Positions 4,191 through 53,822 are shown, counted from the whole stretch's first letter. The stretch is 53,822 nucleotides of DNA, filler included, from Jimgerdemannia flammicorona (GCA_003990765.1; 3 parts of 3 records of this genome joined end to end with filler, not necessarily neighbours in it), one strand, 5' to 3'. Made by a program: numbers and translations. The notes: generated by a model not told the origin, from the sequence alone.

Positions 4191-4501
4191 GGAACTTAGT
4201 AGTTTTAGTTATTGGAATTTATATTTAGCTTTATATCTTAGCAACCATTGAATTATATTTTATATAAATACCTCTCTTATTTCCTCTGAAATAAAGTCAG
4301 TCTTCTCAGTGCAATACACACACTTCCTTGCAAGCAATCTAAGAGATAACAAGATAGTTAAAGATAAGAAGTTTGAGGACTATAAGACCTTGGGAAGGCA
4401 CTCCAATAAGAACTTGCTTATAACAAACTTGAGTTAGTCCAAAAGATACACCTTGAAGAGAATCTGGTATATTTGAAGGACTCAGTGACCACTATGTGAC
4501 A

Positions 4502-14106: not shown

Positions 14107-14141
14107 TTTTCAGCTTGAAAGTGAGGAATTCATCTTGAATC

Positions 14142-14159
14142 ACTAGTCAATGGGCACCA
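14142..14159 (-). promoter_or_regulatory. Primer-binding site of copy B
   Basis: TGGTGCCCATTGAC lies 3 nt inside the 5' LTR end and begins with TGG, complementary to tRNA CCA. The priming tRNA was not identified. Confidence 0.75.
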
Positions 14160-14162
14160 AAT

Positions 14163-17878: not shown

Positions 17879-17978
17879 NNNNNNNNNNNNNNNNNNNNNN
17901 NNNNNNNNNNNNNNNNNNNNNNTTAATTAATTAANNNNNNNNNNNNNNNNNNNNNNNNNNNNNNNNNNNNNNNNNNNN
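17879..17978. other. Assembly gap with TTAATTAATTAA linker
   Basis: 100-nt block N44-TTAATTAATTAA-N44, identical to the gap at 35856. Confidence 0.97.
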
Positions 17979-24265: not shown

Positions 24266-25100
24266 CTTTTTTTTTTTTTTTTTTTTATAGTCACTTAGAC
24301 TTTGCTATTTATTACCAGTCTATAGATATAGTTACAGTACCTCCTCCCACTACCCAATTCCTCTAGGGGGGCTCTCCTCTATCTCTTCATACTTGAAAGA
24401 CACCCTATCACCCACTACCTCAACTCTTCCCACACTCTGCCTATAGGTTTTCTCTATCAAACTATGCTGCCAACCATTCTGCAGGCTCCAACCAAGCCAC
24501 TAGTCCATCAAGATGTCCTCCATCAGCCCTTCCCATCTCAGCAACCATACTCTCAATCCTAGACTCCTCCCATCCTTAAAAATAAACAACTAGTGACCCA
24601 CCAACCCCACCTATATAGCTATAATCTAACCTAAAGTGAGCTACTCTATCCCAACCCCCTCTACCAATCTGTACCACAAGTCCTCCCATTGACCCCTCAT
24701 ATCAACTCCCCTATGTACTACACCCAATTACTACCCAACTACCAACCAGAAGTCACTAAGCACCTCACACTCTCCCAGCCAATGTTCAGGCATCTGTACA
24801 AAACCCCCTTTCTGCCTTATATTATAGTACTCCTCACAGTCAAAACTTCTCCCCTTGACTAGATGGTCTGAGTGAAAGTTGAGCATGACATTTCTCTACA
24901 ATATGTACTACTAGACCACTCAGTACTTTGATAGTATCTACTACCTGATCTCAGCACTCCAGACCCAAACCTCATTCTAGTCTCACTTCTCTCTGATACC
25001 CACCTGCTGCTATCTGCCAGGCCACAAATCCTGTCCTAACCCTCTCTAATACTTGACTCTATTACTAATATCAAAGTTGAGTAATAAGATACATCTAATA
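24266..25100 (-). mobile_element. 3' end of an L1/Tx1-type LINE with poly(A) tail
   Basis: A T22 run followed by ATAGTCACTTAGACT... is the reverse complement of the LINE terminus at ~35030-35855. Confidence 0.88.
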
Positions 25101-28100: not shown

Positions 28101-29990
28101 GCTGCTAGGGTCTATTGGAGAGAGGCAGGTGCAGCAGCTGAAAGACAGAGAAGGAAGAAGAGGGTGTGATAGGTTTTGTGGCCCTGGAGGGGGTAGAGGA
28201 TTGGAGATTGCTACAGGTGAGAAAGGAGGTTGTGGAGTTGCAATAGATATTGCAGGAGGAGGAGAAAGCACAGGTGTAGAGTATGGTAGTGCATCTCTAT
28301 TGGCAGGGGCTGGAGGAAGGAGAGAGGTCCTCTAAGTTTCTCATGAGAGCTCTTTAGGCAAAGAGGGTTCAGCAGAGGTGAGAGGGAGTTCTCGATTCTG
28401 AGGAGACATTGGTACATAGCATATAAAACATTCTCAGGTCACTGAAGGAGCAGTAGAGTGGCTTGTAGAGTAAGGAGAAGGGATGCCTCCATTGGTATTG
28501 CCTTGGAGGATTGGCACTCACCATAGGTAGAAGGGCTGGGCAATCTGGTGATGCTGGTGCAGGAGGAGGAGATTCACTAAGTTCTTACCACAACTATATT
28601 GGGTATAGCACCAGGTGAGGATGGCCTGCCTCGGGCTTTCTGGAAGAAGATGGTGGATGTCTCTGGTATGCTGGGAGAGCTGAGAGCACTCTGTGACTTG
28701 GTACTGTAGTCTGAGAGATGGATAGGGGAGCAGGATCTGGGGCTGGTGGCACTGCTGTATAAGAACAAGAGTAGGAGGGAGGACTGGAGAAACTGGAGGC
28801 TGATCATGCTACTGAACATAGACAGGAAGTTAATTACTAAGATGGTAGTAGTGAGGCTGCAGAAGGTGGTCCAGCAGGTCTTGGGGGTAGAGCAGTGGGG
28901 ATTTGTCAGAGGCCAACTCATTCAGGATGATACAGCTTGGGTATATAGTATTATTGAAGGAGCATGGGCCTGTAGATTGGATGGGCACCTGGTCTTCTTG
29001 GATCAGGAGAAGGCATATGACTATGTTTGGAGAGTCTGGTTGGCAAAGATACTAGACAGGATTGGAGTCCCTCACCAGTTCTGAGCAGCAATAGTCAGCC
29101 TACTAGAAGGGAGCAGAGCTGCACTTATGTGTAATGAGCATCAAGGGGTGGCTTTCCCTCTGGGTAGGGGTGTTCTCCAAGGGGACCTACTATCCCCCAT
29201 TTTGTATACACTCTTTTTGGAGCCTCTAATGGATAGGATTCAGCAGAAGATAGGAGGGCTTTCAGTTTATGGTATTGAGTAGAAAGTTGGTACTTTTGTG
29301 GATAATATAGTGGTCAGTCTGGGTTCAATTACCAATATTGAGGAACTCAAGGAGACTGTAGAGTAGTATGAGGCATACTCTGGAGTTAAACTCAATTGGC
29401 ACAAGTGTGAAAAAATGGTGCTGGGTAATGGTCTGGTAGAGGGAGAGGTCATTGGAATAATTGTCCCTGCTGGAGAGACAGTGAGGTGCTTGGGCATCTA
29501 TCTGTCAGTATATGGGTCCATTCTTCCAAAACTCTAGTAGAAGTAGTGGGTGGTTATCTGGAGAGAGGCTCTATGAAGCTGGGGAGGCCACCACTTATCT
29601 CTGGTAGGGCATGTTTCTATCTTGAATACTTACTGACTACTGAAGTTATGGTATCTGGTATATCATCTGAACTTCTCAGCCTGGGTAGTGAAGAGACTAC
29701 TGAAACTGGCCAAGGGGTGGATCTGGGGAGAGAGGAGGAGTCAGATTAGCTGGGACATTTTGTCCCTACTGGTAAATAGAGGAGGACTTGGGCTAGTTGA
29801 CTTCCCAAAGAGATTACACTGCCTGAGAGTATGGTAGCTGAAGAGAGCTGTTGAGCTGGGGGGAGGCAGCAGGGTTCCTCTATTGAAGAAGGTCTGGGAG
29901 ATGAGGTCTTCATCAAGAGGATCTACAGGAGATCTTCTGTCTTTGGTTGGGCTTTAGAACAATGGGCACATGCAGTTCAAGGACTTCTGG
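25101..29990 (+). mobile_element. L1/Tx1-clade LINE copy 1 (ORF1 25183-27202, ORF2 from 27234), 3' end cut by copy 2
   Basis: SLNVNG, GGDFN, PGEDG, NWRLIMLLNIDRK, LDQEKAYD, QGDLLSP, LGI. Many TGG-to-TAG stops. Confidence 0.92.
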
Positions 29991-30073
29991 CATCTCTCTC
30001 TGGTACCCCTCAGGTTACACAACTTTTTGGAAAGCAACTACAACATTATTTTTGGAGAAAAGAGACTAGCAAC

Positions 30074-32098
30074 ATAGCAACCGACAGGCAATCTGAGGTG
30101 TGTACTGAGCAGGACAGCCCAAGCATGTTCGACTGGTAGCATGTGGGGAGAGGCCCTGGCCTGGGGGGAGGTATAAGGGGGCTGCTGGTGGGTGGATAAG
30201 GTAGGGAAGGAGGCAGTAGTGGAGGACAGAGATCTGGAAGGGTGAGCTTTGCTGAGATGGTGAAGGGGAGAAGGCAGATGATGGGGCTGGAGAGTTGGTT
30301 GAGGAAAGGCAAGGAAAAGGAGAAGGCAACAGTATATGGGGGAGTAGCCCTTGGCAGAGGAGGTGGTGGGGCTGGAGATATAGTAGCTAGGGGGGGTGTG
30401 ATGGCTGATGGAGATGGAACTGCTAATCTGGAAAAAAATCCAGATGTGACTGTGGATGGTGTGGCTGAGTGATTGGGGCCTGGGAGACAAGGAGATTTAG
30501 CAGATAGTGTAATGGGCCTGGCAGTGACACCGTTACTCAAGAAATCGATCTCAGCATTTGTGATGACACTGTGCTTCCAGGGCCTAGCAGTGATGGTGAA
30601 AATAGTACTGGGGCTGATTGCTAAGCAGGTGGCTGGAGTGGCATCTGTAAAGTTTTTGAAGGGACTGGAGGGAGTGGAAGTGGGCTTTGAGGAGGCTGAG
30701 CCTTTGGAGGAAGCATTGAAGGTTGGATTGATAGTTGGGGAGGTGTGTGTTCCAATGGCATGATGTCTGAAATAGGATCCCAGAGTGGTCCAACTGCTGG
30801 TGAAAGGGGTGCCCACAGTGATGGCAATGGAGACAAGAAAGAGAGTCGAGGAGGTCATGGTGGAGTATGGAGAGGTGGTGGATATTGGATTCAGAGTCTA
30901 AGAGGAGACCTTGCTCAGGACTGAAGATGTGGATGTGAGAATTTAGCTTACAGAAAAGGAGGCCACTGGGAAGGCAAGGGACTGGCCTTCCATTGTGGTC
31001 TGGGGGGCAATCATGTGCAAGGTAATGAGGGTGAAGGGGAGTGAGGAGGAGGAAGAGGACCTATTGGAAGCACTGAAAGAGTTGAGTGGTGCGGTGGACC
31101 AGCAGGTGAAGGCTTGGAGGGCCTTTGAGGAGACAATGCACTTGGAGGTGGTGGATGGGAAGCAGATTTGAGTAAGCAAGGAGCAGTGGGAATGAGATCA
31201 GAGATGTAAGAGACAGAGAGAACTGCTGGCAAAGATGAAGAGTAGGCCTCAGAAGGATACGAGCAGGATGGTGGACACAGGGGAGGCCAAAGCGAGTGTC
31301 TGAGCAGGTGAGGGAAGTGGGAGTGCTGGGAAGGGGACTGGTGAGAACAGAGAGGCGACTGGTAAGGACCTGTATGCAAATGGTATGCTGGAGGTTTGGG
31401 ATGAGATATGGGAGGACTCTCCTATCCCTACTCCCCTTATCAGGCAGGGCCTAGCTTCCTGAAGCAGGATGGTGGAGGATGTGCCAATGCAGGGGGCCCA
31501 GCATGTGTAATTTGGAGTCCCGGAGGCAGCAAAAGGGGGACAAGTGGTGGCAGTCAGTGAGGAGGAACTGGTGGATGTCCCAGAGGAGTGGGACAAGGCT
31601 GCGAGTGCTGGGGCTGATACCACGATGCTGGATGGTGGGAGGCCAGTGACTCCTGGAGGAAAGGAGGTGGGGAACTTACTTTGGATGTGCAGGATGATGA
31701 ACAACCTGGTGGCCAAGGAGCTGGGAGAGGTGGATCTGAGAGTAATGAGTAATGAGCATTGGGCAAGGATCCTGCAGAGGGAGGGAGTGGTGATGGCATT
31801 GAATGCAGAAATTCTTGTGGTATATCTGGAAGAGGAGGGCTATGAGGTAGATAAGGAGCGGGAGGCAGAGATGGTGGGAGTTACAGAAGAGAGGGCTGAA
31901 TACTGCTGGATTAAGCATCATGGACTGCAGCTCTGGCAGAAGGCTTGCCTGGAGTACTGTGAGGATTTCGAGGAGAAGGCAGATGGGGAGATGAATGAGC
32001 TGTTGGCTGGACTGGAGGCTCAGAGGGCTGAAGAGGAGGCAGTGACTGTGGAACATGATCTGGACTTGGCACAGGAGGAGATGAACATGGAGCAGTAG
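30074..32098 (+). pseudogene. LINE ORF1 with an acidic, coiled-coil-like C-terminus
   Basis: Track ORFs 30242, 30473 and 31544 share one frame and are homologous to copy 1 ORF1. Confidence 0.75.
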
Positions 32099-32128
32099 AG
32101 AAAGCTTGATAATATACCATTTTTTACT

Positions 32129-35100
32129 ATAAACAGTACAACCAACATTTTTTCTTTGAATGTGAATGGGTTACAGGGCACTTATCGATGTAAGAACATT
32201 TTTACTTGGCTGAAGGGATTGGAGGCCGATCTCTTCCTCTTGCAGGATGTCAGGTGTGAGGATGACTTGGATAGACTGGAATAGATGAAGGAGTGGAGAG
32301 GTGAGGCAGTCTGGAAGGACAAGATTGGAATTCTGGTGTGGAAAGACAGAGGGGAGATAAGGGATGTGCAGAGCTGGGGGGATAGATTGGTCTGGGGAGA
32401 GTGGATATGCACAAGTTGGGAGCCAGTCATGGTGGGCTCCTATTACTGCTCTGCAGTATGAGGTGAGTATGTGAATTAGGTGAAGGGCCTACAGGAGAGT
32501 GAAATTCTTGTAGAGATTGGGGTGGATATGCTTGGGGGGGACTTCAATATAGTCTGAGATGTGTTGAGGGATAGAACTGATGGAGGATGAGGAGCAGAGG
32601 GTCAGAGTGGAGGACTGGCAGCATGGGAGGAAGTGGAAAGACTGAGTGCTCTGGTGGATGTGGGTAGAGAATGTTGGGGGGATAGGAGGGTGTACATGCA
32701 CTGGGCTGGGGGCCTGGGGACGAGGATTGACTAGATTCTGACAGCCAGCTGCTGGGGCTTGGATGTTTGGAAGTCACTGGAGGTGGAATGGTGTCCTTGG
32801 TTGGATCATTGGGGGCTTTTAGGGCAGGGACATTTTGGGGGGAGTGGGGATGGGCCTGGACATTGGTGTCTCAATTCCTCCTTACTAGATGATAAGATCT
32901 GATGGGATGAGTGGGCTGAAGATATTCAACTGCGTGTAGAGTGCTGGAGGCAGGAAGGGGCCCCAGTTGCTATTCAGTGGAGGAGGATGAAGAAGATGGC
33001 CAGGACCTTCTGAAGTGAGGCTGGTAAGGAGGCTGGGAAACAGAGGAGGTAGCAGGTGCGGTGGGCTTCTAGTAGACTGTCTAGACTCTTGGAGGACTGG
33101 GCAAGACTGGTGATGTTGGAGGGGGAGGAGGACTGGAGATTGATAAGGGTAAGAATGGAGGTGGTTGAACTACAACAGGTGCTGTGGAATGAGGAAGAGG
33201 CAAGGGTCCAGGGTCTGGTAGCATGGCTTCATTGGCAGGAGTTGGAGGAAGGAGAGCAGCCCTCAAAGTTTCTCACAAGAGCCCTTCAGGTAAAAAGGGT
33301 GTAATAAAGGTAGGAGGGGTGCTAGATGCTGATGGTATATTGGTGCATGGTGTACAAGACATTCTTGAATTGTTAAAGGAGCATTGGAGTGGATTGTGGA
33401 GTGAGGAGGAGGGTGGAGCAGATGCTGAGGACATTGACTGAGCATTGGAGGATTGACACCCTACACAAGCAGATGGGCTGAGTGACTTAGTACTGCTGGT
33501 GCAAGAGGAGGAGATCCACTAGGTTCTTGCCATGACAATCTTGAGTACAGTGCCTGGAGAGGATGGTCTGCCCTGGGACTTCTGGAAAAAGATAGTGGGA
33601 GTCCCAGGAGTACTGGAAGAGATGACAGTACTGTGTGATTGGATTCTACAGATGGAGAGATGGGTGGGAGACCAGGATCTGAGGCTGGTGACATTGCTTT
33701 ATAAGAACAAAGGAAGGTGAGAGGACTGGAAGAACTGGAGGCCAATTATGCTACTGGATATGGACAGAAAGTTGGTTACCAAGGTGGTGGTCGCAAGGTT
33801 GCAAAAGGTGGCCCAGCAAGTCTTGGGTGATGAGTAGAGGGGCTTTGTGGGAGGCCGATTCATCAGAGATGGCACAGCATGGGTTCATGAAGTTATTGAA
33901 GGGGCACAAGCCAGTGGACTGGATGGGCATCTGGTCTTTCTGGACCAGGAGAAGGCTTATGACTGAGTGTGACAGGTCTGGCTGGTGAAAGTATTGGATA
34001 GGATTGGGGTCCCGCATCAGTTCAGAACAGCTATGGTCAGCCTACTGGAAGAAAGTAGGGCTGCACTTATGTGTAATGGACACAGAGGGGTAGCATTTCC
34101 CCTGGGTAGGGGGGTGCCCCAAGGGGACCCACTGTCCCCCATTTTGTACACTCTTTCTCTAGAGCCCTTCATGGACAGAATCAGGCAGAAGATAGTGGGG
34201 CTCTCTATCTTTGACATTGGGTGGAAAGTAGGGACATTTGCAGATAACATGGTGGTTGGCCTGGGATCAATTGCAGATGTAGAGAAGCTCAAGGAGACAG
34301 TGAAGTGGTATGAGGCAAACTCTGGGGCTAGGCTTAATTGGCATAAGTACAAAACAATGGTGTTAGACAATAGTCTGGTGGGAGGGGAGATTATTGGTAC
34401 CATTGTCCCTGCTGGCAAGGCGGTATAGTACTTGGGTATTTATCTGTCAGTATATGGGTCAGTTCTGCCCAGACTTTGGTGGGAGCAGTAGGTTGGTATC
34501 TAGGAGGAGGCCCTGTGGAGTTGGGGGGGCCACCAATTGTCTCTGGCAGGATGCATTTTGATTCTGAACATCTATTGGCTGCTAAAGTTGTAGTATCTGG
34601 CTTATCATCTGGACTTCCCAGCTTGGGTGGTGAAGCGATTGATGAAGCTGGCCAAGGGGTGGATCTGGGCTGGAAGGTGGAGTCAGATCAGCTGAGAGGT
34701 CTTGTCCTTACCGGTGGTGAGTGAGGGACTTGGGCTGGTGGACCTTCCTAAGAGGCTGCACTGCTTGAGAGTGTGGTGGCTGAAGAGAGTGGTGGAGTTG
34801 AGAGGGGGTGGTTGGGTTCCCCTACTGCAGAAAGTATGGAAGATGAGGTCCTCTCCAAGGGGTTCAACTGGTGATCTCCTAGCACTTGTGAGCCTTCAGA
34901 ACATCAAACAATTGTGATACAAAGGCTTCTGGTGGAGAGTGGCAGAAGGGGCATGCTGCATTAGAATTAGGTGGCAGGGAAATGAAGGGGAGGCAGCTTG
35001 GGACCCAGCGATGTAGAGATGGGACCAAGTGTTACTGGGTGGCATTCCCTTAATTAAGTTTGACATTGGTGATGGGATTGAATACCAATGGAGACCAGGC

Positions 35101-35784
35101 CAGGACCTGTGGCCTAGCAGTTGGCAAGGAGTAGGAATCAGCGAAAAGTGGGACTAGCATAGCATTTGGGCCTGGAGTGCTGAGATGAGGAGGTAGCTAC
35201 TGCCAAAGTACTAGGTGGTCTGGTGGCGAGTGCTGAGGCAGAATATCATGCTCAACTTCTGCTCAAGTCACCTTATCGAGGGAGGTTGCTTTGACTGTGA
35301 AGAGTGTTATAATGTAGGGCAGGAAGGGAAATATATGCAGATGCCTGAACATTGGCTAGGAGAGTGTGAGGTACTTTGTACCTTTTGGCAGAACATTGGG
35401 GATCATTTGGGGGTAGTGTGTAGGAGAGCTGGCATGTGGGGGCAATGGGAGGATTTAAGGAATAGATTGGAGGGGGAGGTGGGGAAGGAATGGCTGATAT
35501 TAGGCTGGGCTTTGGCCATTTGGGTGGGGCTGGCCAGTTACTGGTTATTTGTTTTTGAGGATGGGAGGACACTTGGCTCAGAGATCAGACTGCTGAGGTG
35601 GCATAGCCTTATGGAAGACACCTTGATGGGTTGGTGGCTTGGTTGGGGGTTGCAGGGGGGTCAAAGGCATCATTTGGTAGAGAAAATCTGTAGGCAGAGT
35701 GGGGAGAGGGTTAGAGTTGTGGGTGAGAAAGTGGTCTTTGTTTGTGTAGGTGGGGGGAGTGGCACCCCTATGGGGATCGGATAG
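32129..35784 (+). pseudogene. LINE ORF2: APE endonuclease plus reverse transcriptase
   Basis: SLNVNGL, FLLQD, GGDFN, RID, DH; PGEDG, NWRPIML, GVPQGDPLSPILY, FADNM (FADD), YLGI; CFDCEEC...EHWLGEC. Confidence 0.92.
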
Positions 35785-35855
35785 TGGGAGGGTATCCTGT
35801 ATACTTATTAATAGATGGGTAATAAATGGCAGAGTCCAAGTGACTATAAAAAAAA

Positions 35856-35955
35856 NNNNNNNNNNNNNNNNNNNNNNNNNNNNNNNNNNNNNNNNNNNNT
35901 TAATTAATTAANNNNNNNNNNNNNNNNNNNNNNNNNNNNNNNNNNNNNNNNNNNN
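35856..35955. other. Assembly gap with TTAATTAATTAA linker
   Basis: Same 100-nt N/linker block as the first gap. Confidence 0.97.
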
Positions 35956-38744: not shown

Positions 38745-39541
38745 TTCACATTTCAAATAAATATCTACCTCTTGCTCAGGAATTGCCATTAGTTTCTGTC
38801 ATTTGCTGAATATATATTCTTGTAGTTCAGCATCCACATCATCTCCAGTATCTTCAATATTAGAACTTGCTCAATAAACTGATCTAGCTAGAGGGGTGTA
38901 GGTTGCATTATAGATTATGTAAAATACATTTTTCGCCTCTTCAATCCACTCGGGTTCCCAATCATGAGATATATAATATTGTAATTTAAGCCTGGGATCA
39001 AGTACTGGTTTTATTCAAAAAAGAAAAAAATTAGTTCAATTTTGAAATACAGCCAACATCATTTTGAATATATATACTTACTGGTACCAACATAATAAAT
39101 TAGAGTATCTGTCCTTTTATAATATTCTTTCAACTTAACAATAGCTGCTGTTAGTGCCAGGTGAATGGGATTTGACTCTTCAGTATTATTATCCTCCAAC
39201 TTATCCAGTAAGAAGTTGTAAATTGGAACAGTAGAATAAATTGTTGGATATTTATGCCACATAGTAAGATCTGTTGCTTGTTTGAAGCACTTTAGAATAC
39301 CAACAATATCTTTTAACACCTGCCAAGTATAATCTTCAATGGCATATTATCAAAAATCCCTATCAGCAATAATGATTGCAGTTAAGAGCTATATATAATA
39401 TATATATAATAGTAATTAATTCATTAGATTATCACTTATAAATAAATTAAATATATTCGATTCAAAATATTTTGAAATATTTTGAATCAAATTGCCAATT
39501 CAATTTGATGCTATTTGTTGAGAGTACTGATCTGAAGAATG

Positions 39542-39583
<42 letters not shown>

Positions 39584-41437
39584 CTTACTTTTGATAATTC
39601 TAAGGCTCATTCAATCATTGAATATGTTGAATTCCATCAAGTTCTAATATCCAATATGAGTTCTTTTGGATTGCTGATTCCAAAAATTCTATATTACTTA
39701 GCAAATTGCTCTTGATACTATAGTGAAGATCAGATCTTGGTAATAATCATTTGGAGCCTTGATATTTCTCCATTCTCAGTTATATCATCATCTTCACTCT
39801 CAGCCTTCAGATAGATTAAAAATGCCTGAACAGCCAGGTTAATGATATGCACCAGGTAGCATATATATTGTATTGGTGGATTATTAAGGTACATAAGTGT
39901 GATCGAATTTCTCCTGAATTATTCGAAAAAACACATTGTTGTTGGATGTATTGTCTGTTATTATAGCCAATATCTAGAGTGAAAATCAATAATTTGAAAT
40001 GTAAGATAACTGTATTTCGAAATATATATATATTTTTTTAAAAAAAAAATCACAATCTTTTTTATGTGAAAATATAAAACAAAACCACCCATTTCCAAAA
40101 TATGAAATTATGTACCTTTGTCGATATCCCAAAGTCTCTGATATAGTTCATGAAGGCATCAGCAAGATTTTCATCCAAATGAGGTCCTGACAGCTTGACA
40201 AAATCAATCAACATACAGTTGAGTTACCAATTCTGACTGATCCAATGTACATTAATTCCAAGAAATGTATGCATATTAGGTGATATCCATGTGTCAATAG
40301 TGAAAGATATTCAACTGAGTACATTCTATTTCCAAATAAATTAATCAGAATGGGCTTAATTCAAATTAAGATTTAAATAAGTCAAAATATTAAATCTTAC
40401 CTGTAGCTTAATTTTGATGGCATCATGACTCCATTGAAAAGTTAGTCTGATTTCATTTCAAATAGTTCCAGCAGAAGGAATAGTAATGTCTGGTTTCAGA
40501 AGGCAAAAAATATCTTTCAGCTCTGAACTCTCAACAACTATAAAAGGCTGATTGTTATCAATAATTCAGTAAATGAGCTTGTCTTGAAATAACTGTATAG
40601 AGAATTTTGGCTATTTAAAAAAAGAGAGTTCTTAGGACACTCATCAGCATAGCCACCAGCTCCCCCAATTACAATATGGTCAAAAGGTAAACCATACTTG
40701 TGATAAGTATGAATCTATCATTCCAATCTGAAGACTCTTATAGTGTTTGTTGAAATGTATCCACAAATTTGTTGTTGAGCTACCTTTAGACTTATATTTT
40801 ACTTTACAGTGGTTACACTTCAGAATGACTTCTCCATCATCCTTGTGCACCTTCATAAACTCCTTCCAAATATCAGAGTGTGTATGGTGTGCTCTTCCTT
40901 TTCCTTTTGCAGATTGTATTGAGGTTATTACTGCACTTGTTGAAGTTGTATCTGTTGATATCATAGCTGTTATTATAGTATCCTCTGTAACTGATAGTGG
41001 TGTAAAAGGCTCATCTGACATGCTTGAATACATTAAGGAAGGTAGTTGTATATTGTGAGTTTCAATGCATATGAGTTTCTAATTACCATATTGAGTTTCC
41101 AATTACCATATTGAGTTTTGAGGATCGAATTGAATCGATTTAATTTGATTCGATATTATTGAGCTGACTGTCACATCATTTTATTTATATACTAGTATTG
41201 TAATATTTACAATTGAGCAGTGGCTTATATGACTATAATCCCCCATTCAGCTGATAGAGAAATCTCATCGAATCAAATCGAATTGAAACTCGAATCAAAT
41301 TGGACCTTTGATTCGATTTGAATCAAATTGAATTGAACCTCAATTCGAATTGATTTGAATCAAATTGGCCTCAATTTGAATTGAATCGAATCAAATTTGA
41401 CTCATATTCAATTTGATTCGATTCGTTAAGAGCACTA
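38745..41437 (-). mobile_element. hAT DNA transposon with an intron-containing transposase pseudogene, 3'-truncated
   Basis: BED finger IWKEF...CNHC...STTNLWIHFNKH, FTIDTW, TDN, HIINLAVQ, DIRT*WNSTYSMI, YPT, LDPRLK. TIR TAGTGCTC at 41437 with subterminal 5-mer repeats at 41265-41425. Confidence 0.88.
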
Positions 41438-42575: not shown

Positions 42576-45500
42576 TTAGAAATCTGACCCCTCGACACGG
42601 AACGTTTCCGCGAAGGCGAAGTACCGTGTCACGAGCTTAAAGATGGGGTGTGGGAGGTTCATCGAGATGAGCATGTTCTGCATCTTGGAGAGACCCTCGT
42701 TACGAATCAGCTTGTTGAGGTTGTGGCCGATGACCGTAGGGTACTAGATTGAATGACATTGGGATGTGAAGCGTGAACATTGGATGCCAACATGTATGAA
42801 TGACATTGCATACCGCTTCATGAATCAGTTTGAAAGGCCAAAAGAAAAACTTACTACAATCTCATGATACCACCGCTCGTGATATACCGTCAGCTTGACG
42901 ACGGCGACCAGGGCTTTCTGAACATTGCCCTCATCGGCATAGATTTCAAGGAGCTTCATCCAAGCCTTAGCCGAAAATTTGTGGTCCAAACACTGCTGAT
43001 AGGCTTCCTTGGCTTCCTCCTGCAAAAGAGCACACAATCGTGTTAATTATGAATGTATGAGGCCGAAGTCGATGCTCGCAGCAGAAAGACATAAATCATC
43101 AATCCCTCTCGACCCACCTTGTGATGCAGCCTCGAAGCCAAATCACCAAGTATTTCCCATTCAGTGCCTGTCTTGCGGTAGGGCATATGCTGTGCCTTGT
43201 AGTGCGACACTTCGGTTCTCCAGACGGTATAAACGCGAAGATCCTAAATGATGAGGTCGGTGTGATTATGTTGTGTATAGCAGTATTGTGGACGAATCGC
43301 AACAAAAACGCAGTGACGAACCTCGTAAAGAACCATAAACAGGTTGTCCAACCATCGTTCGCACAACCTCTTATTGCTGAACGAGAAACTGTGCTCTGGC
43401 TGGCTGGCCGCATCCTGGAATTGAGTGAATACAATTTTGGGGGATCAAAGATCGATCCTGATCGTGGCAGAGGATTTCTACCGCTCAGAATTTCTTCTTG
43501 AACCCGGAACCTTTTCCCGGTTGATCACACATAAGTTTGTCATATTTCAACTGACCTTTAGATCCTTCTGCTCCTCAGCAGCCTGCTTAGGCTTCTCCAT
43601 GTAACTTTGCTCCAAAGCCGCCGACTTCAATTTTTCTTCCTGTTCTCTCGCCTTCCTCGCTTCCTCGCTTTCCTGTTTCTTCTCCTCCCCATCATCCAAT
43701 TTCACATCCTCCAAATCCTCCGCCAACTTTTCTCCCCCCCCCTCGTTCTGTTCCTTCTCCTTCTCCTCTTCTTTCTCCTCTTCATTCTCATCCTTCTCCT
43801 CCTTTTCCTCCTTCCCCTTCTCCTCCTTCTCCTCCTCCTCCTCCTTCTCCTCCTTCTCCTTCTCCTTCTCCTTCTCCTCCCTCTCCCCCTTCTCCTTCTC
43901 CTCTAATTTCCTTTTCTCCTCCTCGAGTTTTGCCCCATTCGCTCTCGCCTCCTCCTCCAGCCTCTCCTCCCTCCTCGCCGCCACTAGGCTCTCTCTCTTT
44001 GCCCTCGCTGCTTTGAGACCTTCCATCGCCGCACTTCCCTTCCGCTCCTCCTCCACGGCCTTCTGCATACGGTATTCCTCCTCCATAACGAACACGCCCG
44101 ATCGGCACTTGAGCAGCTCGTCCCAACCAATCCTGGCGACGAGGCGGGTCAGAAGCGAGTAAGCCTTGTTGAAAGTACCGTGAAGGGCCGGGGCGGGGAG
44201 GCGGTAGAGGTTCGGATCGGCCTAGGAGACGCGATAATGGGTAGGATGTGGCAAGACAGTTGAAGTATATAGGGTTTATGCGTCGTTGGATGGTTACAAA
44301 AACGATTACAGCATACATACATCGCTATCCCGGCCGGTATCCTCCTCCATGATGCCCGAATTCACGATCTCCGGCTTGATTGGTAAATGAGTGCGCGCTG
44401 GGGTCGGCATGCGATGCATGTCGCGCTCGCTGTAGGTGAACATGGGGCACGAATTCAGGGTAAGGAGGGCCTGGAAGGAGATGAAGAAATAAGCGAGGTG
44501 TAATAAATAAGTGTGACCGCCACAGTACATTTCGAGAGCTCTCTTGTCTAAGTTGTTTTGGTTGAACCTAAGCGAATACACCAATTAAAGGAACAGCTTA
44601 AAAACAGGGATGCAAACGCACAGATTCGTAATCAGCAAGATCAATGTACACTTCCGTAAGTTTGGCCCAAGTGACAAATTCCGAAGGCGTATTGTTCACA
44701 GCGTGCTTAGCGAGCTTCAGAGCGATATCGTATTTGCCCTGCATAACGGATTAATTTCGATAAGTATCGTTGATGCAAGCTTTCACTTTCAACGAATTAG
44801 GAAAAAAAAAAAAAAAAAAAAAGCGAAATGCAAACCTTAGTCCTCAGGAAATCGACCTGCGTATGCAGTAGCGCATAACTCATAGGCGTGGCCTTGAGGG
44901 CGTCATACAAAACATTGATGGCCTTAATTTCCTCGTCTATAAAATAAAGACAAAGGATATATACGATCTATATCAACATAATGAGAAGGGGGCTCAGCGG
45001 GTCACACGTGACTCGGTACCCCTTTTCGCAACAATACAGGAGCATAGCCTCGTTCAGCGTACCTTGACCAATATAAGCCTGTGAGAGCAACGCGGCGACC
45101 TCAGGATCCTTCTGATACAGTGCACAGGAATCAAGGAATAGCTCACAACAAAAACTCACACGATGTGGCACAAGCTCAAAAAAAAAAAAAAGAGGTATGA
45201 TCGAAAAGGATATTTTTCTCAAACAGCTTGACGGCAGGCTCAAAGCGGAAGCTATCACCAAAATACTTCATAATGCCATTGGTCAGGTGGTTGTTGACGG
45301 AGGTGGCGACTTGGATTTCGGGAACACTGCCGAGTTGCCAACCTGTAGAAACCCAATCAATACGAAGGATGTTACTCAGCCGGTTCGACCAGACGGAGGG
45401 CATTGCGATAGGCCAGCAAAATCTTCTAGATTCTTATTCGTCGAACAAGATCGTGGAAAAACAATCGATCAAGGAAATCCCTCAAAACCGCACCCTGGAA

Positions 45501-46827: not shown

Positions 46828-48236
46828 TGTTTGTTGTCAGAACGCGTTCGCGGAATGGAGAGTGAGTTTCTTGCGGCAAGGAGCAAAGAAAGAAGGGCTA
46901 TTCTGACAGCGGGCGTTGTCGCGAAGTGCTCCTGCATTCCGGGAAACCTTAACGTCACCATTCGGTGTCCAATCCGGTGCGCAGCCCCGAATCACAGTCA
47001 CACATTACTGCACCCTTCCCTGTTTGAACGCCAAGCCGAGAACGAGTGTATACATATTAGGAGACCAACACGTCATGAAACTATCTATAATCTTAAGCCC
47101 GTGTTAAGGAGGCGCTCTTGACGTAGCTAAGCGACGTCGGGGAGTTTTTTTTTTTTTTATTTTACTTTTTTTTTATTTTTGCCAGGGTCCCACGGTCTGC
47201 AATAATGCTCGGGGATTACTACCGGAATTACCGCTTTTCCGAGTTGTCAAAGCTGACCATGAGTTGGAAACCTAAAGCAAAAAAACCGTTTACTGACCCT
47301 CGATGAACAGTTATCATACGGAACTGTTTGGGAAGTTCGAGGACCCCTGACAGATCCCTTCACCTGACATGGTCACAATCATTTGATGGATGTTCCTGCC
47401 AACATAGATTGACATCACCAAAGCCGTTAATCTGTGCAGTTCTATGATCTTTGGCAAGTACACGGATCTAGTAAATGCATTCTCCTTTTGTAAGCTGATA
47501 GTTGCCTTGTACATGTTTATTTTCATCTGGTCGTGCCCTTAGGAGAGAACCCACCACAAAGCCAAACCTCGAGGGAGAACACAAACTAGGTGACAACAGG
47601 CAGGTCGAAAGGACTTCGGCGATGGAGAGGTCGCTGGCCCTCTGGCAGCAAACAATGGATAAACTTGCATCGCCGATTTGGATTTTGCAATCATGCAATA
47701 CCGCAGTAGTGCGGTGCTCGATCAAGCCATGAACGGCATGATGTCCTCTTTTGTTGTAAAAGGTTGTTTTTCAGATCGGTCACCCCCGCGCCTCGAGAAG
47801 ATGTAGCTGTAATATATTAATATCTGTACAAAATATGCAATTTATGATGTTAATTCCTAATCAATCTTGGATTATTAATGTATATTTTTATTTTAGTCTG
47901 AGCCCTTGGATGCCATCACCCAATGTTTAAATCAAATAAATAGCAGTTCAACTAGTTCAAATATTGAATAAAAAAGAGAAACATTCTTACCTAAGGCAGA
48001 GTTTAATAACAATGTAGTTTAGAGACACTATTGTATTCAAGTCAGAAGAACCCATGCATTCTATAGTAACTACAGCTCGGCTAACCAGGTCTGACTGCAC
48101 ATGTATATAGTTGCTGCCATGTTAGTTGTAACCTTTTACGTCAAGACATTATCCAATGACGTATAGGGTGGCCGACTAAATATGGATTATGAACTGAGGA
48201 AAATATGTGTTTCTTTGTTATTATGAAGCTTCAACT

Positions 48237-48308
48237 GGTTTCGTAGTGTAATGGTTATCACACAAGACTCTGAATCTTGTAATCCGAGTTCGATTCTTAG
48301 TAAGACCT
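48237..48308 (+). tRNA. tRNA-Gln(CUG), possibly pseudogenised
   Basis: Anticodon arm CAAGA-CT-CTG-AA-TCTTG, TTCGA T-loop and a T-rich tail. One C.A mismatch each in the acceptor and T stems. Confidence 0.85.
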
Positions 48309-48399
48309 TTTATTTTGCCTCATGAAGGGATGCTTGAATATACATATATCATTTATAACCAGAATCTCATGGTTATTACGGTTCCGCAGAGACAGCACG

Positions 48400-49224
48400 A
48401 GAGGAGGAAGATGGCCCAGCAGGAGCCAGGGGAGCAAACCCAGAGCCAGTGTCAAAGCGAATGGAAGACATGTGGAAGAGCATGTATAAGGGGGACGAAC
48501 AAAGAACGTAACCGAAATTACATCAGCCATTTATTGCCATGTAAAAACGCGGTCCTTATATACAAAATACGACGTCCCAAAAGGGAGGACATGCCACAAC
48601 TCGGGGTGAACCGAATTAGGAACCACATGACCGCCGGAGATAAGCGGAGATAAAGGGGGAGCCAATCTCAGTTGCAGGATAAAAATCACAAACAAATACA
48701 AACAAAACAAATCCAAATCGAGATTAAAAAACATCCTTGCCCCCTCTGGGGTCTTGCGCTCGCTCCGGGGTCTCGGCCTTACTCTGCTCCCCTCCGCTGC
48801 CTTTGACCCCTCACTTCGCTCGGGCTCGCTGCGGCTCGCTCCGTTTCAGCCTCACCCCTCGCTCGCGCTCACCCCTCCGGGGTCTGCGGATGTTTTTTAA
48901 TCTCGATTTGGATTTGTTTTGTTTGTGTTTGTTTGTGATTTTTATCCTGCAACTGGGATTGGCTCCCCCTTTATCTCCACTTATCTCTGGCGGTCATGTG
49001 GTTCCTAATTCGGTTCACCTCGAGTTGTGGCGCGTCCTCCCTTTTGGGACGTTGTATTTTGTATATAAGGACCGCGTTTTTACGTGGCAATAAACGGCTG
49101 ATGCAATTTCGGTTACGTTCTTTGTTCATCCCCCTTATACATGCTCTTCCACATGTCTTCCGTTCACTTTGACACTGGCTCTGGGTTTGCTCCCCTGGCT
49201 CCTGCTGGGCCATCTTCCTCCTCT
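48400..49224. repeat. Palindrome: 337-bp inverted arms (48400-48736 and 48888-49224) around a 151-bp loop
   Basis: AGAGGAGGAAG...GATTAAAAAACATCC is the reverse complement of GGATGTTTTTTAATC...CTTCCTCCTCT. Confidence 0.95.
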
Positions 49225-50370
49225 GCTGTACCGCCTGCCCTCGGGGCCTCCGTCCTCGTCGATGAGCTCATGGATGAGGTACTTCCTCCTCCCTCTCCCC
49301 CTGCCTTCACCCCCGCCACTGTCTCCTTCGAGACCTATATCTCGTCTGCCATCCTTTCCCTCCCCCTGGACCTTCATCCTTCTGGTCGTCCGCTCCTCTC
49401 CCAGTTCCGGTCGGTTCTTGCCCTCTCCGCCAAGGAGGCTCATCTCCGCCATGACGTCGACATCATCGCTCCGCCCGCCATCTGCTACTCCGTTCTCCCC
49501 GAGGCCCGCCACCAAGCCCTCTCTGAAGAGGTTCGTGCCGCCACCGCCGCCGCCGAACTCGCCGCCGCTGACGCCACCGCTGCTTCTGCCGCCGCCGCCT
49601 CCACCGCCTTCCAACGTGCCTGTGCCACTTTTGTGGCCTTCGCCTCCTCCCACCTTTCGGATGCCGCCCCTTTCTGTGGCTTTGCCATCCATGAGGTTCC
49701 TTCGGTCGCTGCCGACATCGACGCTATGCATCGTTTCCTCCTCGCCGGCACTTCCTTTGTCGCTCGTCTTCACGAGCAGGAGTCTTCACGTGCCGCCGCT
49801 GCTGCTCGCACCGCCGCCACTGCTCCCCTCTCTGCCTCCCCTGAGGTTTCGGTCTCCGAGGCCATTTGCGCCAAAGCTCGTGCTGCTGCTCGTGCTGAGG
49901 TTCGTTCCTTCGCTGCCGCCACTGCCAAGGCCCCCTCCAAGACCCCCGTCAAGACCCCCGCCAAGCCCAACCAGGCTTCGTCGGTCTCTTCCCAGTCCCC
50001 CTCCTCTGCCAAGGCTTCCTCCTCCGTTCCCCCTGCCCCCAAGCATGGCCGCCAACTTGGTTCTCGCCCTGTCGGGGCCTGGCCTTGTGCTGTCTGCTCC
50101 GGTCGCCTCCACCGTGCCTACTGGCACCTGGCCAAGTCCGTCTGCCCCCATGGTGGTATTCCTCGCGCTGCTGCCCCTTCGGCTGCTCGCTCGCCTTCGG
50201 CCTCCTCCGCTGGTTCTTCCTCTGCCTCCTCTCTCCGTGCCCCTGAATGCAAGGGCTGCACGAAAGCCTGTGGCCGCAAGGTCTGGCACTCTGACGGGGT
50301 GTTCTCTCGTTCGTCGAGTTCGCCACCTTCAAAAAAAGTCAGAGGGAAGGGGAAGGCCTCCCGCTCTTAA
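49153..50370 (+). CDS. PLE ORF1 (~405 aa, Ala-rich helical, with C-terminal Cys/His motifs)
   Basis: Intact ORF. The track start at 49141 reads ACG in the 3' pLTR copy, so 49153 is preferred. Motifs CAVC...WH...C.H and CKGC...WH; TATATAA near 49062. Confidence 0.75.
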   Translation: MSSVHFDTGSGFAPLAPAGPSSSSAVPPALGASVLVDELMDEVLPPPSPPAFTPATVSFETYISSAILSLPLDLHPSGRPLLSQFRSVLALSAKEAHLRHDVDIIAPPAICYSVLPEARHQALSEEVRAATAAAELAAADATAASAAAASTAFQRACATFVAFASSHLSDAAPFCGFAIHEVPSVAADIDAMHRFLLAGTSFVARLHEQESSRAAAAARTAATAPLSASPEVSVSEAICAKARAAARAEVRSFAAATAKAPSKTPVKTPAKPNQASSVSSQSPSSAKASSSVPPAPKHGRQLGSRPVGAWPCAVCSGRLHRAYWHLAKSVCPHGGIPRAAAPSAARSPSASSAGSSSASSLRAPECKGCTKACGRKVWHSDGVFSRSSSSPPSKKVRGKGKASRS

Positions 50371-50380
50371 ACTTCCCCCT
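50331..50380 (+). promoter_or_regulatory. Putative -1 ribosomal frameshift signal
   Basis: A_AAA_AAA is phased to ORF1 codons and followed by a G-rich/C-rich stem with GGGGAAG/CTTCCCC pairing. The RT lies in the -1 frame. Confidence 0.6.
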
Positions 50381-52385
50381 GGCGTGGTTCTCCCCCGGTG
50401 TCCCTGTCCCTTCTCGGATTCCGTCGTCGCTTCTGGTGCGCCCTGAGTGGTTCCTCATGTTGTCCCCCCTTCGCCTTTCCCAGTTGCTTGTCCCGAACTT
50501 TCGGGTTTATTCTTCTCTTGGAATACTTTTGTCTCCTCCTTTTTCTTCGGCTGACTGCCCCCTTTCTCCCCTTCAAGTCTTTGCCTTATCTTTGGGTCCT
50601 CGCTTTGTTTTTCCTGCGACTCCCTCACAATTCTCCTTCACTGATCCGGCTCGTCTAACACGTTTTCGTCGTACTCTTGATCTTGCCATTTTCTTTCAAG
50701 ATCGTGGTAAGATGCCCTCTCGCTATTTTGTTCCTAGCGATTGGACCCCCCCTCCCAATGTCTCTTCACACTGCATATTCCTCGACATGGCTTGCTCTTT
50801 GTCCATTCCCGGACATGCTCGCTCTTGCTTGGTTTCGGACCGTGCCATGCGTACCGCGCTTAAATCGGTCAAGCAATTGCCTATACATTTGCTCACAGTC
50901 ACTGATAAGAATCAGGGTTTTGCACTTATTCCTAAGTCGCTCTACCTTGATGGCCTTTCTGCCCTCCTTCGAGCCATGGCTTACGAGCCTAGTGCTCTTG
51001 GATTGGATGAGGTTCTCACTCTTCTTCGGGTTTCTCTGGCTCATGCTAGATCGCTTTCGGATTCCCTGTTCGCGAACCCTATTTTTAACTTCTTCCAGGA
51101 CTCTTTGTCCTCCCCAGATATTTCTCTTCCGGTCTTCTATACTCTTCCTAAAGTTCACAAGCCTCTTTTGGCTTGGCGTCCTATTACGGCTGCTTATAGT
51201 TCTCCTACCACCAAGATTTCGAAATGGTTATCTCATTTCTTTCTCTCCTGGATGGCTCTCCTATAACACCGTCTTGGGCCTGAGTACACTATTCTTCATG
51301 ATACTCAGGAGCTCGCCCTTCTTTGCTCCACCATTGTGCCTGTTCACCATTTTTCCCATTTAGCCTCTGGTGACTTCTCTTCCTTCTATACTGCTATTCG
51401 TTTTGATGAGATCGATGACTGCCTTCACTTCTTGGGTTCCTTGGTTTTTCCTTTGGATTCCCCGGTTTCGCTGACTTCCATCATTGAGCTTACGCTCCTC
51501 GTCTGCGGCTCGAATTATTTTGAGTCGGCCCTTGGCTCCTTTCACCAGACTTCTGGTATTGCCATGGGTACGAATTGTGCCCCCACCCTTGCCAACCTCA
51601 TTGGCCTGGCCCACGAATTGCGTGCGTTACGTGATATTACTTCACCTCTTTCCATTGCGTTCCGGGCTGGGGATATCTTCTTTCGCCGATACATTGATGA
51701 CTTTATTGTCTTCGCTGTTGCTGGTGTTGATATTCCTAGTATGTTCCTGAGCGTCTACCCTCCCCACCATTCTATTACCTGGGTGTGTGGTACGACTAGT
51801 ATTCCCTTTTTGGACCTTTCCATTTCTCTTTCTCTCTTCCGAACTGTTGTTTATTCCCGTTTTCCCCGTTCCCAACAGTTCCCTGACTTCTTGTCCAATC
51901 ATCTTCGTCGCACTCTTCTCGAATGTGTTCGTGGTGAGGCTCATCGTCTTGCATTATGCTGCTCCCATCGTTCTGATTGGGTGTCTGCTGTTCGGGTTCT
52001 TGGCAACTTTGTGGTCCATCGTCGTGCCTACCCTATTTCTATCGTTCGTGATCTACTTGCTTCTGTTGAATGGTCTGTTGTTCGCTCTACCCTCCTCTCT
52101 CCTTTTTATCCCCCCTCCCTTCCCTCTCTCCCCCCTTACCCTCTCTGTACCCCCTCTTCTTTCCCACCCCCGATTCTCGTTGTACCATTCGATCATGCTC
52201 GCTGGGTCGCTCAATGCCCTGATACCGTCCTGCGCTCCTCTCTTTCACGCCATGGACTTTCATCTCTTTCCCGACGCCCTCTGATTGCTCGTTCGCGTCT
52301 TCCTTCCATTTCTTCTACAATCCATCACTCTCGTTTTGCGTTCTCGTCACCTTCTGGTGCCTCCGGCTCTGCTGGAGAGGATTAA
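50331..52385 (+). pseudogene. Penelope-type reverse transcriptase with a single premature TAA at 51264-51266
   Basis: LSLGPRF, TDKNQG, FYTLPKVHK...WRPI, GDFSSFYTAI, QTSGIAMGTNCAPTLANL, RYIDD, PFLDL, PLIARSRLPSI. Track ORFs 50436 and 51336 are in the same frame. Confidence 0.9.
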
Positions 52386-52882
52386 AAAACATCCTTGCCC
52401 CCTCCGGGGTCTCGCGCTCGCTCCGGGGTCTCGGCCTTACTCTGCTCCCCTCCGCTGCCTTCGGCCCCTCGCTTCGCTCAGGCTCGCTGCGGCTCGCTCC
52501 GTTTCGGCCTCACCCCTCGCTCGCGCTCACCCCTCCGGGGTCTGCGGATGTTTTTTAATCTCGATTTGGATTTGTTTTGTTTGTGTTTGTTTGTGATTTT
52601 TATCCTGCAACTGGGATTGGCTCCCCCTTTATCTCCGCTTATCTCTGGCGGTCATGTGGTTCCTAATTCGGTTCGCCCCGAGTTGTGGCGCGTCCTCCCT
52701 TTTGGGACGTTGTATTTTGTATATAAGGACCACGTTTTTACATGGCAATAAACGGCTGATGCAATTTCGGTTACATTCTTTGTTCGTCCCCCTTATACAC
52801 GCTCTTCCACATGTCTTCCGTTCGCTTTGACACTGGCTCTGGGTTTGCTCCCCTGGCTCCCGCTGGGCCATCTTCCTCCTCT
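52380..52882 (+). repeat. 3' pLTR (503-bp direct repeat of 48722-49224)
   Basis: Near-identical to the 5' copy; the differences are mostly transitions at CpG. Confidence 0.95.
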
Positions 52883-53822
52883 ATTGTATCCAAGTACATT
52901 GGTGGTGCTAAATTCAATATGATGTTGGGCACAACATCGAATAGACCCAGATCATTCGGAACAGACGCCCACAATGACAAATAAACCACACGCATTGCGG
53001 CACGAACTCAACCGGAATGACCTTCCTTATTTATCTGATTAAGTTTTCATACGTCCTGTCGCAAGTATTTTTATTCTTTTATTTGGTCTCACAGAAGTCA
53101 AATCGAAAGCTATTAATGTATAGTACCGATATGGATAGATGGATGTATGAAACGCCCTAGCCGATAAAATGGCTCCCGAAAGTTCAAACGTCTCCCCAGA
53201 ATATATTTACATACGATCCTTAGCGACGTTATGTATCATTGCTTCCCATCTCATCTCCTTAATACATCTCTTCCTCATCCTGTAGCGGTGGCGATGGTGA
53301 CGTGCGTGGTTTGTCAGAGGAGACACGGCCCCTGTCGAGCGAGGCACGGGGGGAAACGCTAGGGGATCGGTCTGTGGATTGGGGTTCGGAGTGGGGGTAT
53401 GGGAGATTTGGGGGGGATACAATTAATACCTATAGCCTGTCGGAGAAGTTTGGAAGACGAGACGTAGAAATGGTCAGGATAACTTTCTGCGAAGGGGCGT
53501 TGAAGTAAAGAGACACGTACCTCTCAACGGCGCGCTGGCCACGGTCTGTTTGTGCAAGCCCTCGGCGTTGACCTTAGGTGCAACTGGAAAGTCACAAAAA
53601 CAAGGATGGTCAGAGATCACGCTATTTCCTGTCCTCCACACCAAGTTTCGCAGCCATACAAACTACTTACACTTCGCGGCCTGAACTTGGAGCGAATCCG
53701 CGACGGCTGTCGCCCTGACCTTGGGCATATGCTTGGCACAGAATAACTTGCCATCCGAGACCAAGAAGTTTTGGAGGGTCAGGCTAGCCTTGCAGCCAGT
53801 CGACGAGCACTATTAACATGAA

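Follow-up and report, generated by a model that had tools for sequence, protein, structure and literature searches.

Insertions of Penelope-like elements (PLEs) show a canonical architecture, in which a partial tandem arrangement yields direct repeats termed pseudo-long terminal repeats (pLTRs) and in which an inverted, 5'-truncated copy lies adjacent to them (PMC8557442). In Pen2a_Av of Adineta vaga, for example, two pLTRs are accompanied by an adjacent inverted pLTR, which overlaps the direct one by 15 bp, and the pLTR contains a TATA box together with the first codons of the open reading frame (ORF); in other families, palindromes of 18 bp and 38 bp occur at the 5' end of the pLTR, and the Adineta examples of the inverted-pLTR layout carry target-site duplications of 8-10 bp (PMC3846280). 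The cleavage properties of the GIY-YIG endonuclease have been named as the likely cause of such tandem and inverted pLTRs (PMC8557442). Here a stretch of DNA of 53,822 nucleotides (termed here the window) is analysed, within which positions 48400-52882 correspond to one retroelement that has this same architecture and that encodes a reverse transcriptase (RT) of Penelope-like type but, by its sequence, no endonuclease. This element is interpreted, with moderate confidence, as a single, old and defective insertion of an ORF1-and-RT PLE, made by two-ended priming at a DNA break.

PLEs that lack an endonuclease are usually terminal (PMC8557442, PMC13159263), and those of fungi and protists are said not to have the tandem/inverted pLTR organisation (PMC3846280). 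The latter source also reports no cross-mobilisation of endonuclease-less elements and states that fungal genomes hold only endonuclease-less PLEs. Non-telomeric endonuclease-less PLEs are nevertheless in print, namely PLE-X (in Chara and Selaginella) and MjPLE01 (in the kuruma shrimp) (PMC8557442). Thus, neither the layout described in the initial annotation of this locus nor a non-telomeric endonuclease-less PLE is without precedent: the layout is the canonical architecture of PMC8557442 and PMC3846280, and PLE-X and MjPLE01 are further endonuclease-less elements away from telomeres. In the one PLE studied in vitro, PAc (from Anolis), the Poseidon protein cuts and extends both target strands; it initiates reverse transcription within the ORF, at a stem-loop 111-118 nt from its beginning, and this start site coincides on the two strands and shows no homology to the target (PMC11167929).

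Repeat finding and a blastn comparison of the element with the window (in which no further copy of it was found) agree on the order A'-B-A-ORF1-RT-B-A, as initially annotated. In this notation, A' occupies 48400-48736, B 48737-48887 and A 48888-49224; these are followed by the body of the element and then by a second B-A. The two direct repeats--that is, the 5' pLTR (48722-49224) and the 3' pLTR (52380-52882), both on the plus strand--are each 503 bp long and 96.6% identical to one another. A' (minus strand) is an inverted, 5'-truncated pLTR fragment of 337 bp; in reverse orientation it is 95.8% complementary, over 337 nt, to both 48888-49224 and 52546-52882, and the near inverted arms lie 151 nt apart. 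Within A, a TATATAA motif (49062-49068) and an AATAAA motif (49089-49094) occur on the plus strand, and both recur in the 3' pLTR, at 52720 and 52747; the TATATAA motif, which lies 73 nt upstream of the ORF1 ATG, is a putative promoter.

All three copies of A share a common terminus, at which the 3' pLTR also ends: they finish ...CTTCCTCCTCT, and the outer end of A' is the reverse complement of this. The terminal base, equivalent to position 49224 (plus strand), is nt 84 of ORF1 when counted from the ATG at 49141 and nt 72 when counted from a second in-frame ATG at 49153, which bears out the earlier claim that both outer ends stop at the same base about 70 nt into ORF1; it falls in the loop of a stem-loop predicted within a 201-nt fold. 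The junction sequences, together with a scan of the whole window for telomere-type repeats, likewise agree with what had been said of features that are absent: there is no poly(A) at either end of the element, no target-site duplication is visible at the junctions (nor is a 30-40-bp tail), telomere-type repeats occur nowhere in the window, and the element is accordingly not joined to telomeric repeats. A few bases at the junctions--GCTGT on the left, after 3 extra nt, and TGTA on the right, after 2 nt--resemble those past the terminus in ORF1; such microhomology is too short to be told from chance.

What this analysis adds to the described anatomy concerns the inner end of A'. Since A' ends at 48736 and the direct repeat begins at 48722, the two overlap by 15 bp (GATTAAAAAACATCC, 48722-48736), which serve at once as the innermost bases of A' and as the start of the 5' pLTR. 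The same 15-mer is found at 52380-52394, and its complement at 48888-48902 (the partner arm) and at 52546-52560, so that it forms one arm of a native 15-bp inverted repeat bounding B. The 3' pLTR, beside which no inverted copy lies, contains this pair as well; the pair is thus the element's own and not a scar. The A'/B junction therefore falls exactly within a native inverted repeat, the arms of which form the base of a hairpin (termed here hairpin B), a GC-rich, 151-nt quasi-palindrome closed by the 15-bp arms, which spans 48722-48902 in the 5' pLTR and 52380-52560 in the 3' pLTR (both plus strand). The fold predicted for the 181-nt hairpin of the 3' pLTR copy has an energy of -77 kcal/mol (z -2.5, with 3 of 200 shuffled sequences as good), and the final TAA of ORF2 (52383-52385) falls within the first palindrome arm.

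The element's two ORFs both lie on the plus strand. ORF1 (49141-50370, 409 aa), the first 84 nt of which are within the pLTR, is rich in Ala, Ser and Pro and has Cys/His clusters and a basic tail; it matches no Pfam family, and no homologue was found among 8000 scored candidates, 152 related proteins or the ORFs of the related loci described below. ORF2 (50373-52385) encodes a PLE-type RT with the motifs DKNQG, LPKVHKP, SGDFSSFY, GIAMGTNCAP and RYIDDF, a thumb, and a short C-terminal module; its frame is interrupted by a TAA at 51264-51266, which was read through as X to give the query protein (P0001). The alignment of its closest relatives conserves DKNxG, LPKVHK, DFxSLYT, GIAMGTNCA and RYIDD, and the DKN motif and the thumb are PLE markers (PMC13159263, PMC8557442). 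Pfam gives only a sub-threshold RVT_1 match to the RT; a phmmer search of 1.84 billion representatives gives 3357 matches at E<=0.001, the best full-length ones being RVT_1-only proteins; an Atlas search with the uninterrupted part of the RT returns generic PLE-like clusters only (PF26215, Rotifera and Cnidaria); and a PDB sequence search with the RT profile (A1) returns none at E<=0.01. The AlphaFold model of the part that follows the stop (372 aa, 60-row alignment, pLDDT 87) resembles the RTs of retrons, telomerase and group II introns, with no nuclease among the structural matches. By its motifs, by its relatives (among which are RVT_1+GIY-YIG proteins), by its position in the tree described below and by its predicted RT/TERT-like fold, the RT classifies as Penelope-like.

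The absence of a GIY-YIG endonuclease and of a tyrosine recombinase, both noted initially, holds up under several kinds of search. Neither domain is found by Pfam in ORF1, in the RT pieces or in the RT read-through, nor is an N-terminal GIY-YIG of the Naiad/Chlamys type in ORF1 or the ORF2 N-terminus (Pfam, E<=1), and Pfam finds no domain in 19 more ORFs, each 80 aa or longer and taken from either strand of 48315-52871, save one chance-level RING match. (Pfam detects GIY-YIG at E<=0.01 in only 2 of the 55 top RT relatives.) A local endonuclease hidden Markov model (HMM), built from three GIY-YIG tails, matches 16 of the 152 related proteins, its 3 seeds included, and gives no match to the query RT at E<=1. 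In ORF2, the final folded module (PILVVPFDHARW...PLIARSR...) has an aligned counterpart in endonuclease-less and endonuclease-bearing relatives alike; beyond it, the endonuclease-bearing relatives run into a Cys-rich linker and GIY-YIG, whereas ORF2 stops, and a 48% identical relative (P0002) terminates at the same place. The element thus has neither endonuclease nor recombinase, integrase or RNase H. A DIRS-like identity, which inverted ends and an internal complementary piece might bring to mind, was considered and rejected: there is no tyrosine recombinase or RNase H domain in any frame, and the RT groups with PLEs.

Nor was a hammerhead ribozyme found: Rfam gives no match at E<=1, neither strand of the element has a CUGANGA...GAAA core, and a covariance model (R1), built from 20 hammerheads of relatives, gives no match to 48400-52882 at E<=10 with filters off. 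The controls were positive: the same scan detects cores, oriented as the RT, in 24 of the 65 related loci (two further matches, in L044 and L052, looked spurious and were left out), and the model gives matches in 21 of the 65. At its gathering threshold, Rfam reports hammerheads in none of 20 related loci despite cores seen there by the motif scan, and so a negative from Rfam weighs little for PLE hammerheads. In one endonuclease-less clade of relatives, a second hammerhead-like variant, GGGCUGAAGAGGGUC...CCCGAAACGUUCCC, was seen (L008:270, L009:2389, L014:2169, L016:2404 and L033:47) that both Rfam, at the gathering threshold, and model R1 miss.

The relationship of the RT to its relatives was explored with a FastTree of 118 RT cores, comprising the query and 117 proteins with at least 330 aligned positions (34 were too short and were left out). 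The query falls within a starred, well-supported clade of 8 rows without endonuclease (P0001, P0002, P0004, P0006, P0031, P0109, P0135 and P0147), and all ten endonuclease-bearing rows fall within a separate starred clade of 17 rows; here one should note that 10 of the 16 endonuclease-bearing proteins passed the length cut, that FastTree supports are local and that several rows are long-branched. Adding 26 ORFs from metagenomes leaves this split unchanged.

These ORFs come from a search with alignment A1 of metagenome contigs, which brought up 64 loci with identities of 22-35%. The query's own clade takes in none of the 26 locus ORFs that were of sufficient length for the tree; an endonuclease is present (tblastn) in 2 of the 64 loci, and ten long locus ORFs match RVT_1 only in Pfam. 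Two loci (L047 and L049) have (CCCTAA)n directly at the element ends, as expected of Athena/Coprina-type additions. Three others (L028, L031 and L060) have direct repeats of 525-662 bp around an RVT_1-only ORF, with hammerheads present; the repeats end ...ATATCGC and are joined to three different non-telomeric flanks. In view of these three, the element described here is not the only endonuclease-less PLE that has pLTRs and lies apart from telomeric repeats.

Some metagenomic relatives drew attention for other reasons. Circular-like overlaps (60-126 bp, with 100% identical ends) occur in 15 of the 64 endonuclease-less PLE metagenome contigs, which are 3.0-4.0 kb long (L001, L002, L003, L007, L014, L015, L017, L018, L022, L025, L040, L041, L044, L045 and L051), and L032 consists of three exact tandem 3196-bp units. 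These contigs assemble as circles or tandem arrays, several with a hammerhead per unit, and might reflect a protein-coding, retrozyme-like behaviour. A search for PLE RTs found no locus in viral contigs and, in genome contigs, only L065, a PLE-type RT (26% identity, E 1e-12) on a 3.8-kb contig binned to a Bacteroidetes metagenome-assembled genome, which is most likely a mis-binned eukaryotic contig.

The copy is old and defective, as is evident both from the direct repeats, which are 3.4% apart, and from the in-frame stop within the RT. Substitutions private to one copy number 9 in A' and 5 in each direct A copy over the 337 positions aligned, giving pairwise differences of 14, 14 and 10 per 337 nt among the three copies of A; the B copies of the two pLTRs differ at 7 of 166 positions. 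All 26 of these repeat-copy differences (19 among the A copies and 7 between the B copies) are transitions, and 15 of the 19 A differences lie at CpG/TpG sites (9 are C>T at CpG, and 6 are T>C or A>G at TG/CA), which looks like decay by cytosine methylation at CpG. Because its arms differ by about 4%, with substitutions private to each, the palindrome is not a fold-back introduced by assembly--an artefact that the initial annotation had named as a possible refutation--and the insertion is not recent.

Matches to other copies were sought in sequencing runs, the best shares being 0.12, 0.10 and 0.06, with no RNA holder among those listed and places without cover being uninformative. In a soil-metagenome run, 49216-52689 is matched in pieces with about 5-10% differences, and the flanks have no cover. 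Contigs of two further runs from one organism (X1 and X3) match the left flank at 47248-47797 without difference, and hence derive from the same or a very close strain. Four X1/X3 contigs (records 3, 17, 18 and 21) match A at about 10% differences; in each the match stops 0-3 nt from the common terminus and the contig continues, which is a modest hint that the terminus recurs in other copies. The X3 contigs that match A start at 49117-49158. The run peaks at 49535-49612 reflect low-complexity sequence, the matches there having loose ends on either side, and among the run matches there is no contig that spans either junction or shows the empty site.

The element sits among genes. To its left, outside the element, is a tRNA-Gln(CTG) gene (48237-48308, plus strand; Rfam tRNA 49.2 bits, E 1.8e-8; also found by ARAGORN), which ends 91 bp before it. 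To its right, a spliced host gene on the minus strand (53067-53822) starts about 185 bp downstream and runs off the end of the window; X1 and X3 contigs match 53067-53811 with heavy cover and 0-1 differences, skipping introns at 53372-53520 and 53584-53670 that are bounded by GT..AG, and the gene has a weak LIM match (E 0.095). The flanks had been described as CpG-rich unique DNA. Each does occur once in the window (blastn), and both exceed the window-wide CpG observed/expected ratio of 0.37, the left flank at 0.6-0.73 and the right at 1.0-1.1; more importantly, they are genic. As no tRNA gene is found in any of 60 related loci, the tRNA-Gln neighbour is not a trait of the family and probably reflects the site itself, which may be a fragile spot. 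A TATA motif in A' is oriented toward the tRNA-Gln gene.

From this anatomy, which is directly observed, we infer the following steps of insertion. The template would be an RNA with the pLTR-ORF1 junction at both ends, arising either from a pLTR promoter with a repeated R region or by read-through of tandem copies. On the two free 3'-OH ends of a chromosomal break, the RT would start complementary DNA (cDNA) synthesis at a fixed internal site, nt +84 of ORF1, without homology to the target. The cDNA primed by the right flank would span the whole unit and then--by a jump, or along a multi-unit RNA--extend into a further pLTR until it reached the base of hairpin B; that primed by the left flank would copy no more than the 337 nt of A and halt at the opposite side of this hairpin. 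Because these convergent cDNAs would both be antisense, they could pair only at an inverted repeat inside the element, that is, at the 15-mer. Their 3' ends would thus meet at the 15-bp palindrome, the short cDNA would prime the second strand, and host repair would seal the product. The break itself would be spontaneous or due to a nuclease not encoded by the element, and the copy would later have decayed mostly by CpG transitions. One fixed RT start on two DNA 3'-OH ends would account for the coterminal ends, for the lack of a target-site duplication and for the lack of poly(A). Moreover, a shared end at ORF1 +84 is what the internal-initiation mechanism of PMC11167929 predicts, so that it need not be the RNA's 3' end. 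The earlier proposal, that both DNA ends were primed from the same RNA 3' end, is therefore kept in part: initiation at the same template position from two 3' ends is the best reading, but that position, being inside ORF1, need not be an RNA terminus.

The chief rival to two-ended priming is self-priming: just one DNA end would have primed, and its cDNA would have bent back at the 15-bp inverted repeat to start synthesis of its complementary strand. This would predict the same palindromic junction, which lies at the base of a stable hairpin, and such palindromes were taken in 2013 as signs of self-priming in Penelope (PMC3846280). Yet a self-primed strand has no reason to stop at the RT start and to join an unrelated flank there--it would be expected to run on into antisense ORF1 or a copy of the flank--whereas the end of A' coincides to the base with those of the two copies of A; and extension from both strands at one start site has been observed in vitro (PMC11167929). 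We therefore regard self-priming as unlikely. To much the same degree we doubt that the same element, with the same two-strand priming, used DNA ends cut in trans by the nuclease of an endonuclease-bearing PLE or by some other nuclease, even though endonuclease-bearing Penelope elements, whose GIY-YIG cuts both strands, have an identical architecture (PMC11167929, PMC3846280): the target-site duplication of 8-10 bp seen in Adineta is missing here, PMC3846280 reports no cross-mobilisation and only endonuclease-less PLEs in fungi, and the nearest 7 relatives are all endonuclease-less. Endonuclease-independent insertion, which the initial annotation put forward as an inference, would hold only if no nuclease acted in trans.

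Two other accounts are much less probable still. That A' and the full element are separate insertions, or the result of a later rearrangement between copies, that abut by chance would be in keeping with a window rich in transposable elements, a circumstance that is not specific; such an origin, which we consider very improbable, is hard to square with a seamless 15-bp overlap at a native palindrome, with a common outer terminus, with the similar divergence of the three A copies, and with the recurrence of this exact layout among PLEs (PMC8557442, PMC3846280). Hardly any more credible is a formerly telomeric or subtelomeric addition of Coprina/Athena type that was later internalised, or else an assembly artefact. 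The usual terminal location of endonuclease-less PLEs (PMC8557442, PMC13159263) and the element's position 940 bp from the end of the window would fit a telomeric origin; but neither the junctions nor the rest of the window contain a telomeric repeat of the kind found at the ends of L047 and L049, genes lie within 200 bp on both sides, and arms that are 4% apart are not expected of a fold-back read artefact.

Several points nonetheless weigh against two-ended priming at a break as set out above. Only one copy has been examined in full, and it is decayed; as already noted, self-priming predicts the same junction. The stem-loop predicted at the terminus, which would parallel the PAc start site, is weak: its stem has 4 bp, and the z-score of -2.4 (2 of 200 shuffles as good) applies to the 201-nt fold as a whole. 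The X1/X3 contigs that hint at other copies are short, their RNA or DNA nature is a guess, and the flanking letters beyond the match were not seen. A fungal host is suggested by a single ChAPs-domain fragment, at 43550-44221, of a fungal protein family. With one decayed copy as its basis, the case amounts to a lead and not to a demonstration.

The full architecture at a genic site, in an element with neither endonuclease nor ribozyme, argues for its origin in the mode of RT initiation together with a palindromic cis element, offers a concrete and testable role for the pLTR palindromes noted since 2013, and joins other cases in which a PLE without its endonuclease is not restricted to telomeres. 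We put forward only tentatively, as a possibility that we would not presently bet on, the more general proposal that the Penelope layout is a product of RT and RNA alone rather than of GIY-YIG, that insertion may occur at any chromosome break, with cDNA started at one internal RNA site on both ends, and that the hairpin serves as a cis element for cDNA annealing, through which the short cDNA primes the second strand; elements of this kind would then be break-repair retrotransposons that are independent of telomeres, of a nuclease and of a ribozyme.

Elsewhere in the window, several other features were seen. Positions 1-15654 contain Ty3/Gypsy copies in opposite orientations (1-4507 versus 6971-11478, 86% identical) with RT, RNase H, integrase and a Gag zinc knuckle, as well as a dUTPase ORF (11439-12011); an Atlas search with the Gypsy ORF points to no host taxon. 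A G-rich block (24279-35855, GC skew about +0.45) consists of tandem 4.9-kb units (25104-29961 and 29994-34903, 71% identical) and is bounded by inverted repeats of about 760 bp (24279-25037 and 35097-35855, 72%); its minus-strand ORFs are rich in Ser, Thr and Pro and match no Pfam family. One and the same masking pattern (44 N, 12 bases, 44 N) is seen twice, 17977 bp apart, at 17879-17978 and at 35856-35955, the latter directly after the right inverted repeat of this block. On the minus strand, within 39062-41078, an ORF at 40683-41078 matches zf-BED (E 5e-5), with a neighbouring ORF at 39062-39346 that has no Pfam match; the former may be a remnant of a hAT-type DNA transposon.

Compared with described systems, the element is in its layout closest to Penelope/Poseidon elements such as Pen2a_Av and PAc. 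It shares with them the direct pLTRs, the head-to-head inverted pLTR, a TATA motif and the first ORF codons within the pLTR, an insertion terminus at a fixed point within an ORF, and matching RT motifs; in Pen2a_Av the inverted and direct copies even overlap, as here, by 15 bp at a short palindrome. Unlike them, it lacks GIY-YIG, a pLTR hammerhead, a target-site duplication and the optional 30-40-bp tail, its ORFs number two rather than one, and its RT falls outside the endonuclease-bearing clade. (PLE hammerheads have been reported for all clades except Naiad and most Chlamys.) With Coprina and Athena it shares an RT with DKN motif and thumb, the lack of an endonuclease and, probably, a fungal host; the direct terminal repeats and upstream ORF1 are also found in Coprina-1_Alen as described in PMC13159263, and an ORF1 in Athena too. 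Unlike Coprina and Athena, it has no telomeric attachment, no reverse-complement telomeric stretch at its 3' end and no hammerhead, and it carries an inverted pLTR, that is, the very organisation denied to endonuclease-less PLEs of fungi and protists (PMC3846280). PLE-X and MjPLE01, with which it can be likened by description only, are likewise endonuclease-less yet located within chromosomes; PLE-X, however, has canonical hammerheads and a CxC motif and targets 28S rDNA in spike mosses (PMC8557442), and both arose inside endonuclease-bearing clades, whereas the nearest relatives of the present element are all endonuclease-less and its site is beside a tRNA gene.

Among the metagenomic loci, L028, L031 and L060 resemble it in being endonuclease-less and in having direct repeats, a fixed 3' end and non-telomeric flanks, but they are only 22-35% identical, belong to another RT clade, have hammerheads, and show no inverted copy on their contigs. 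A further parallel is the endonuclease-independent insertion of LINE-1 at DNA breaks, in which a pre-existing 3'-OH is used and no target-site duplication is made; LINE-1, however, has a different class of RT and is copied from a poly(A) 3' end, and pLTRs and head-to-head inverted copies are not the rule for it. Literature searches turned up no earlier account of an inverted pLTR in a non-telomeric PLE that lacks an endonuclease. The element's presence between ordinary genes suggests that the Penelope arrangement does not need a nuclease of the element's own: the layout is already known from Penelope and its relatives, and what is unusual is that an endonuclease-less, ribozyme-less and non-telomeric element carries it.

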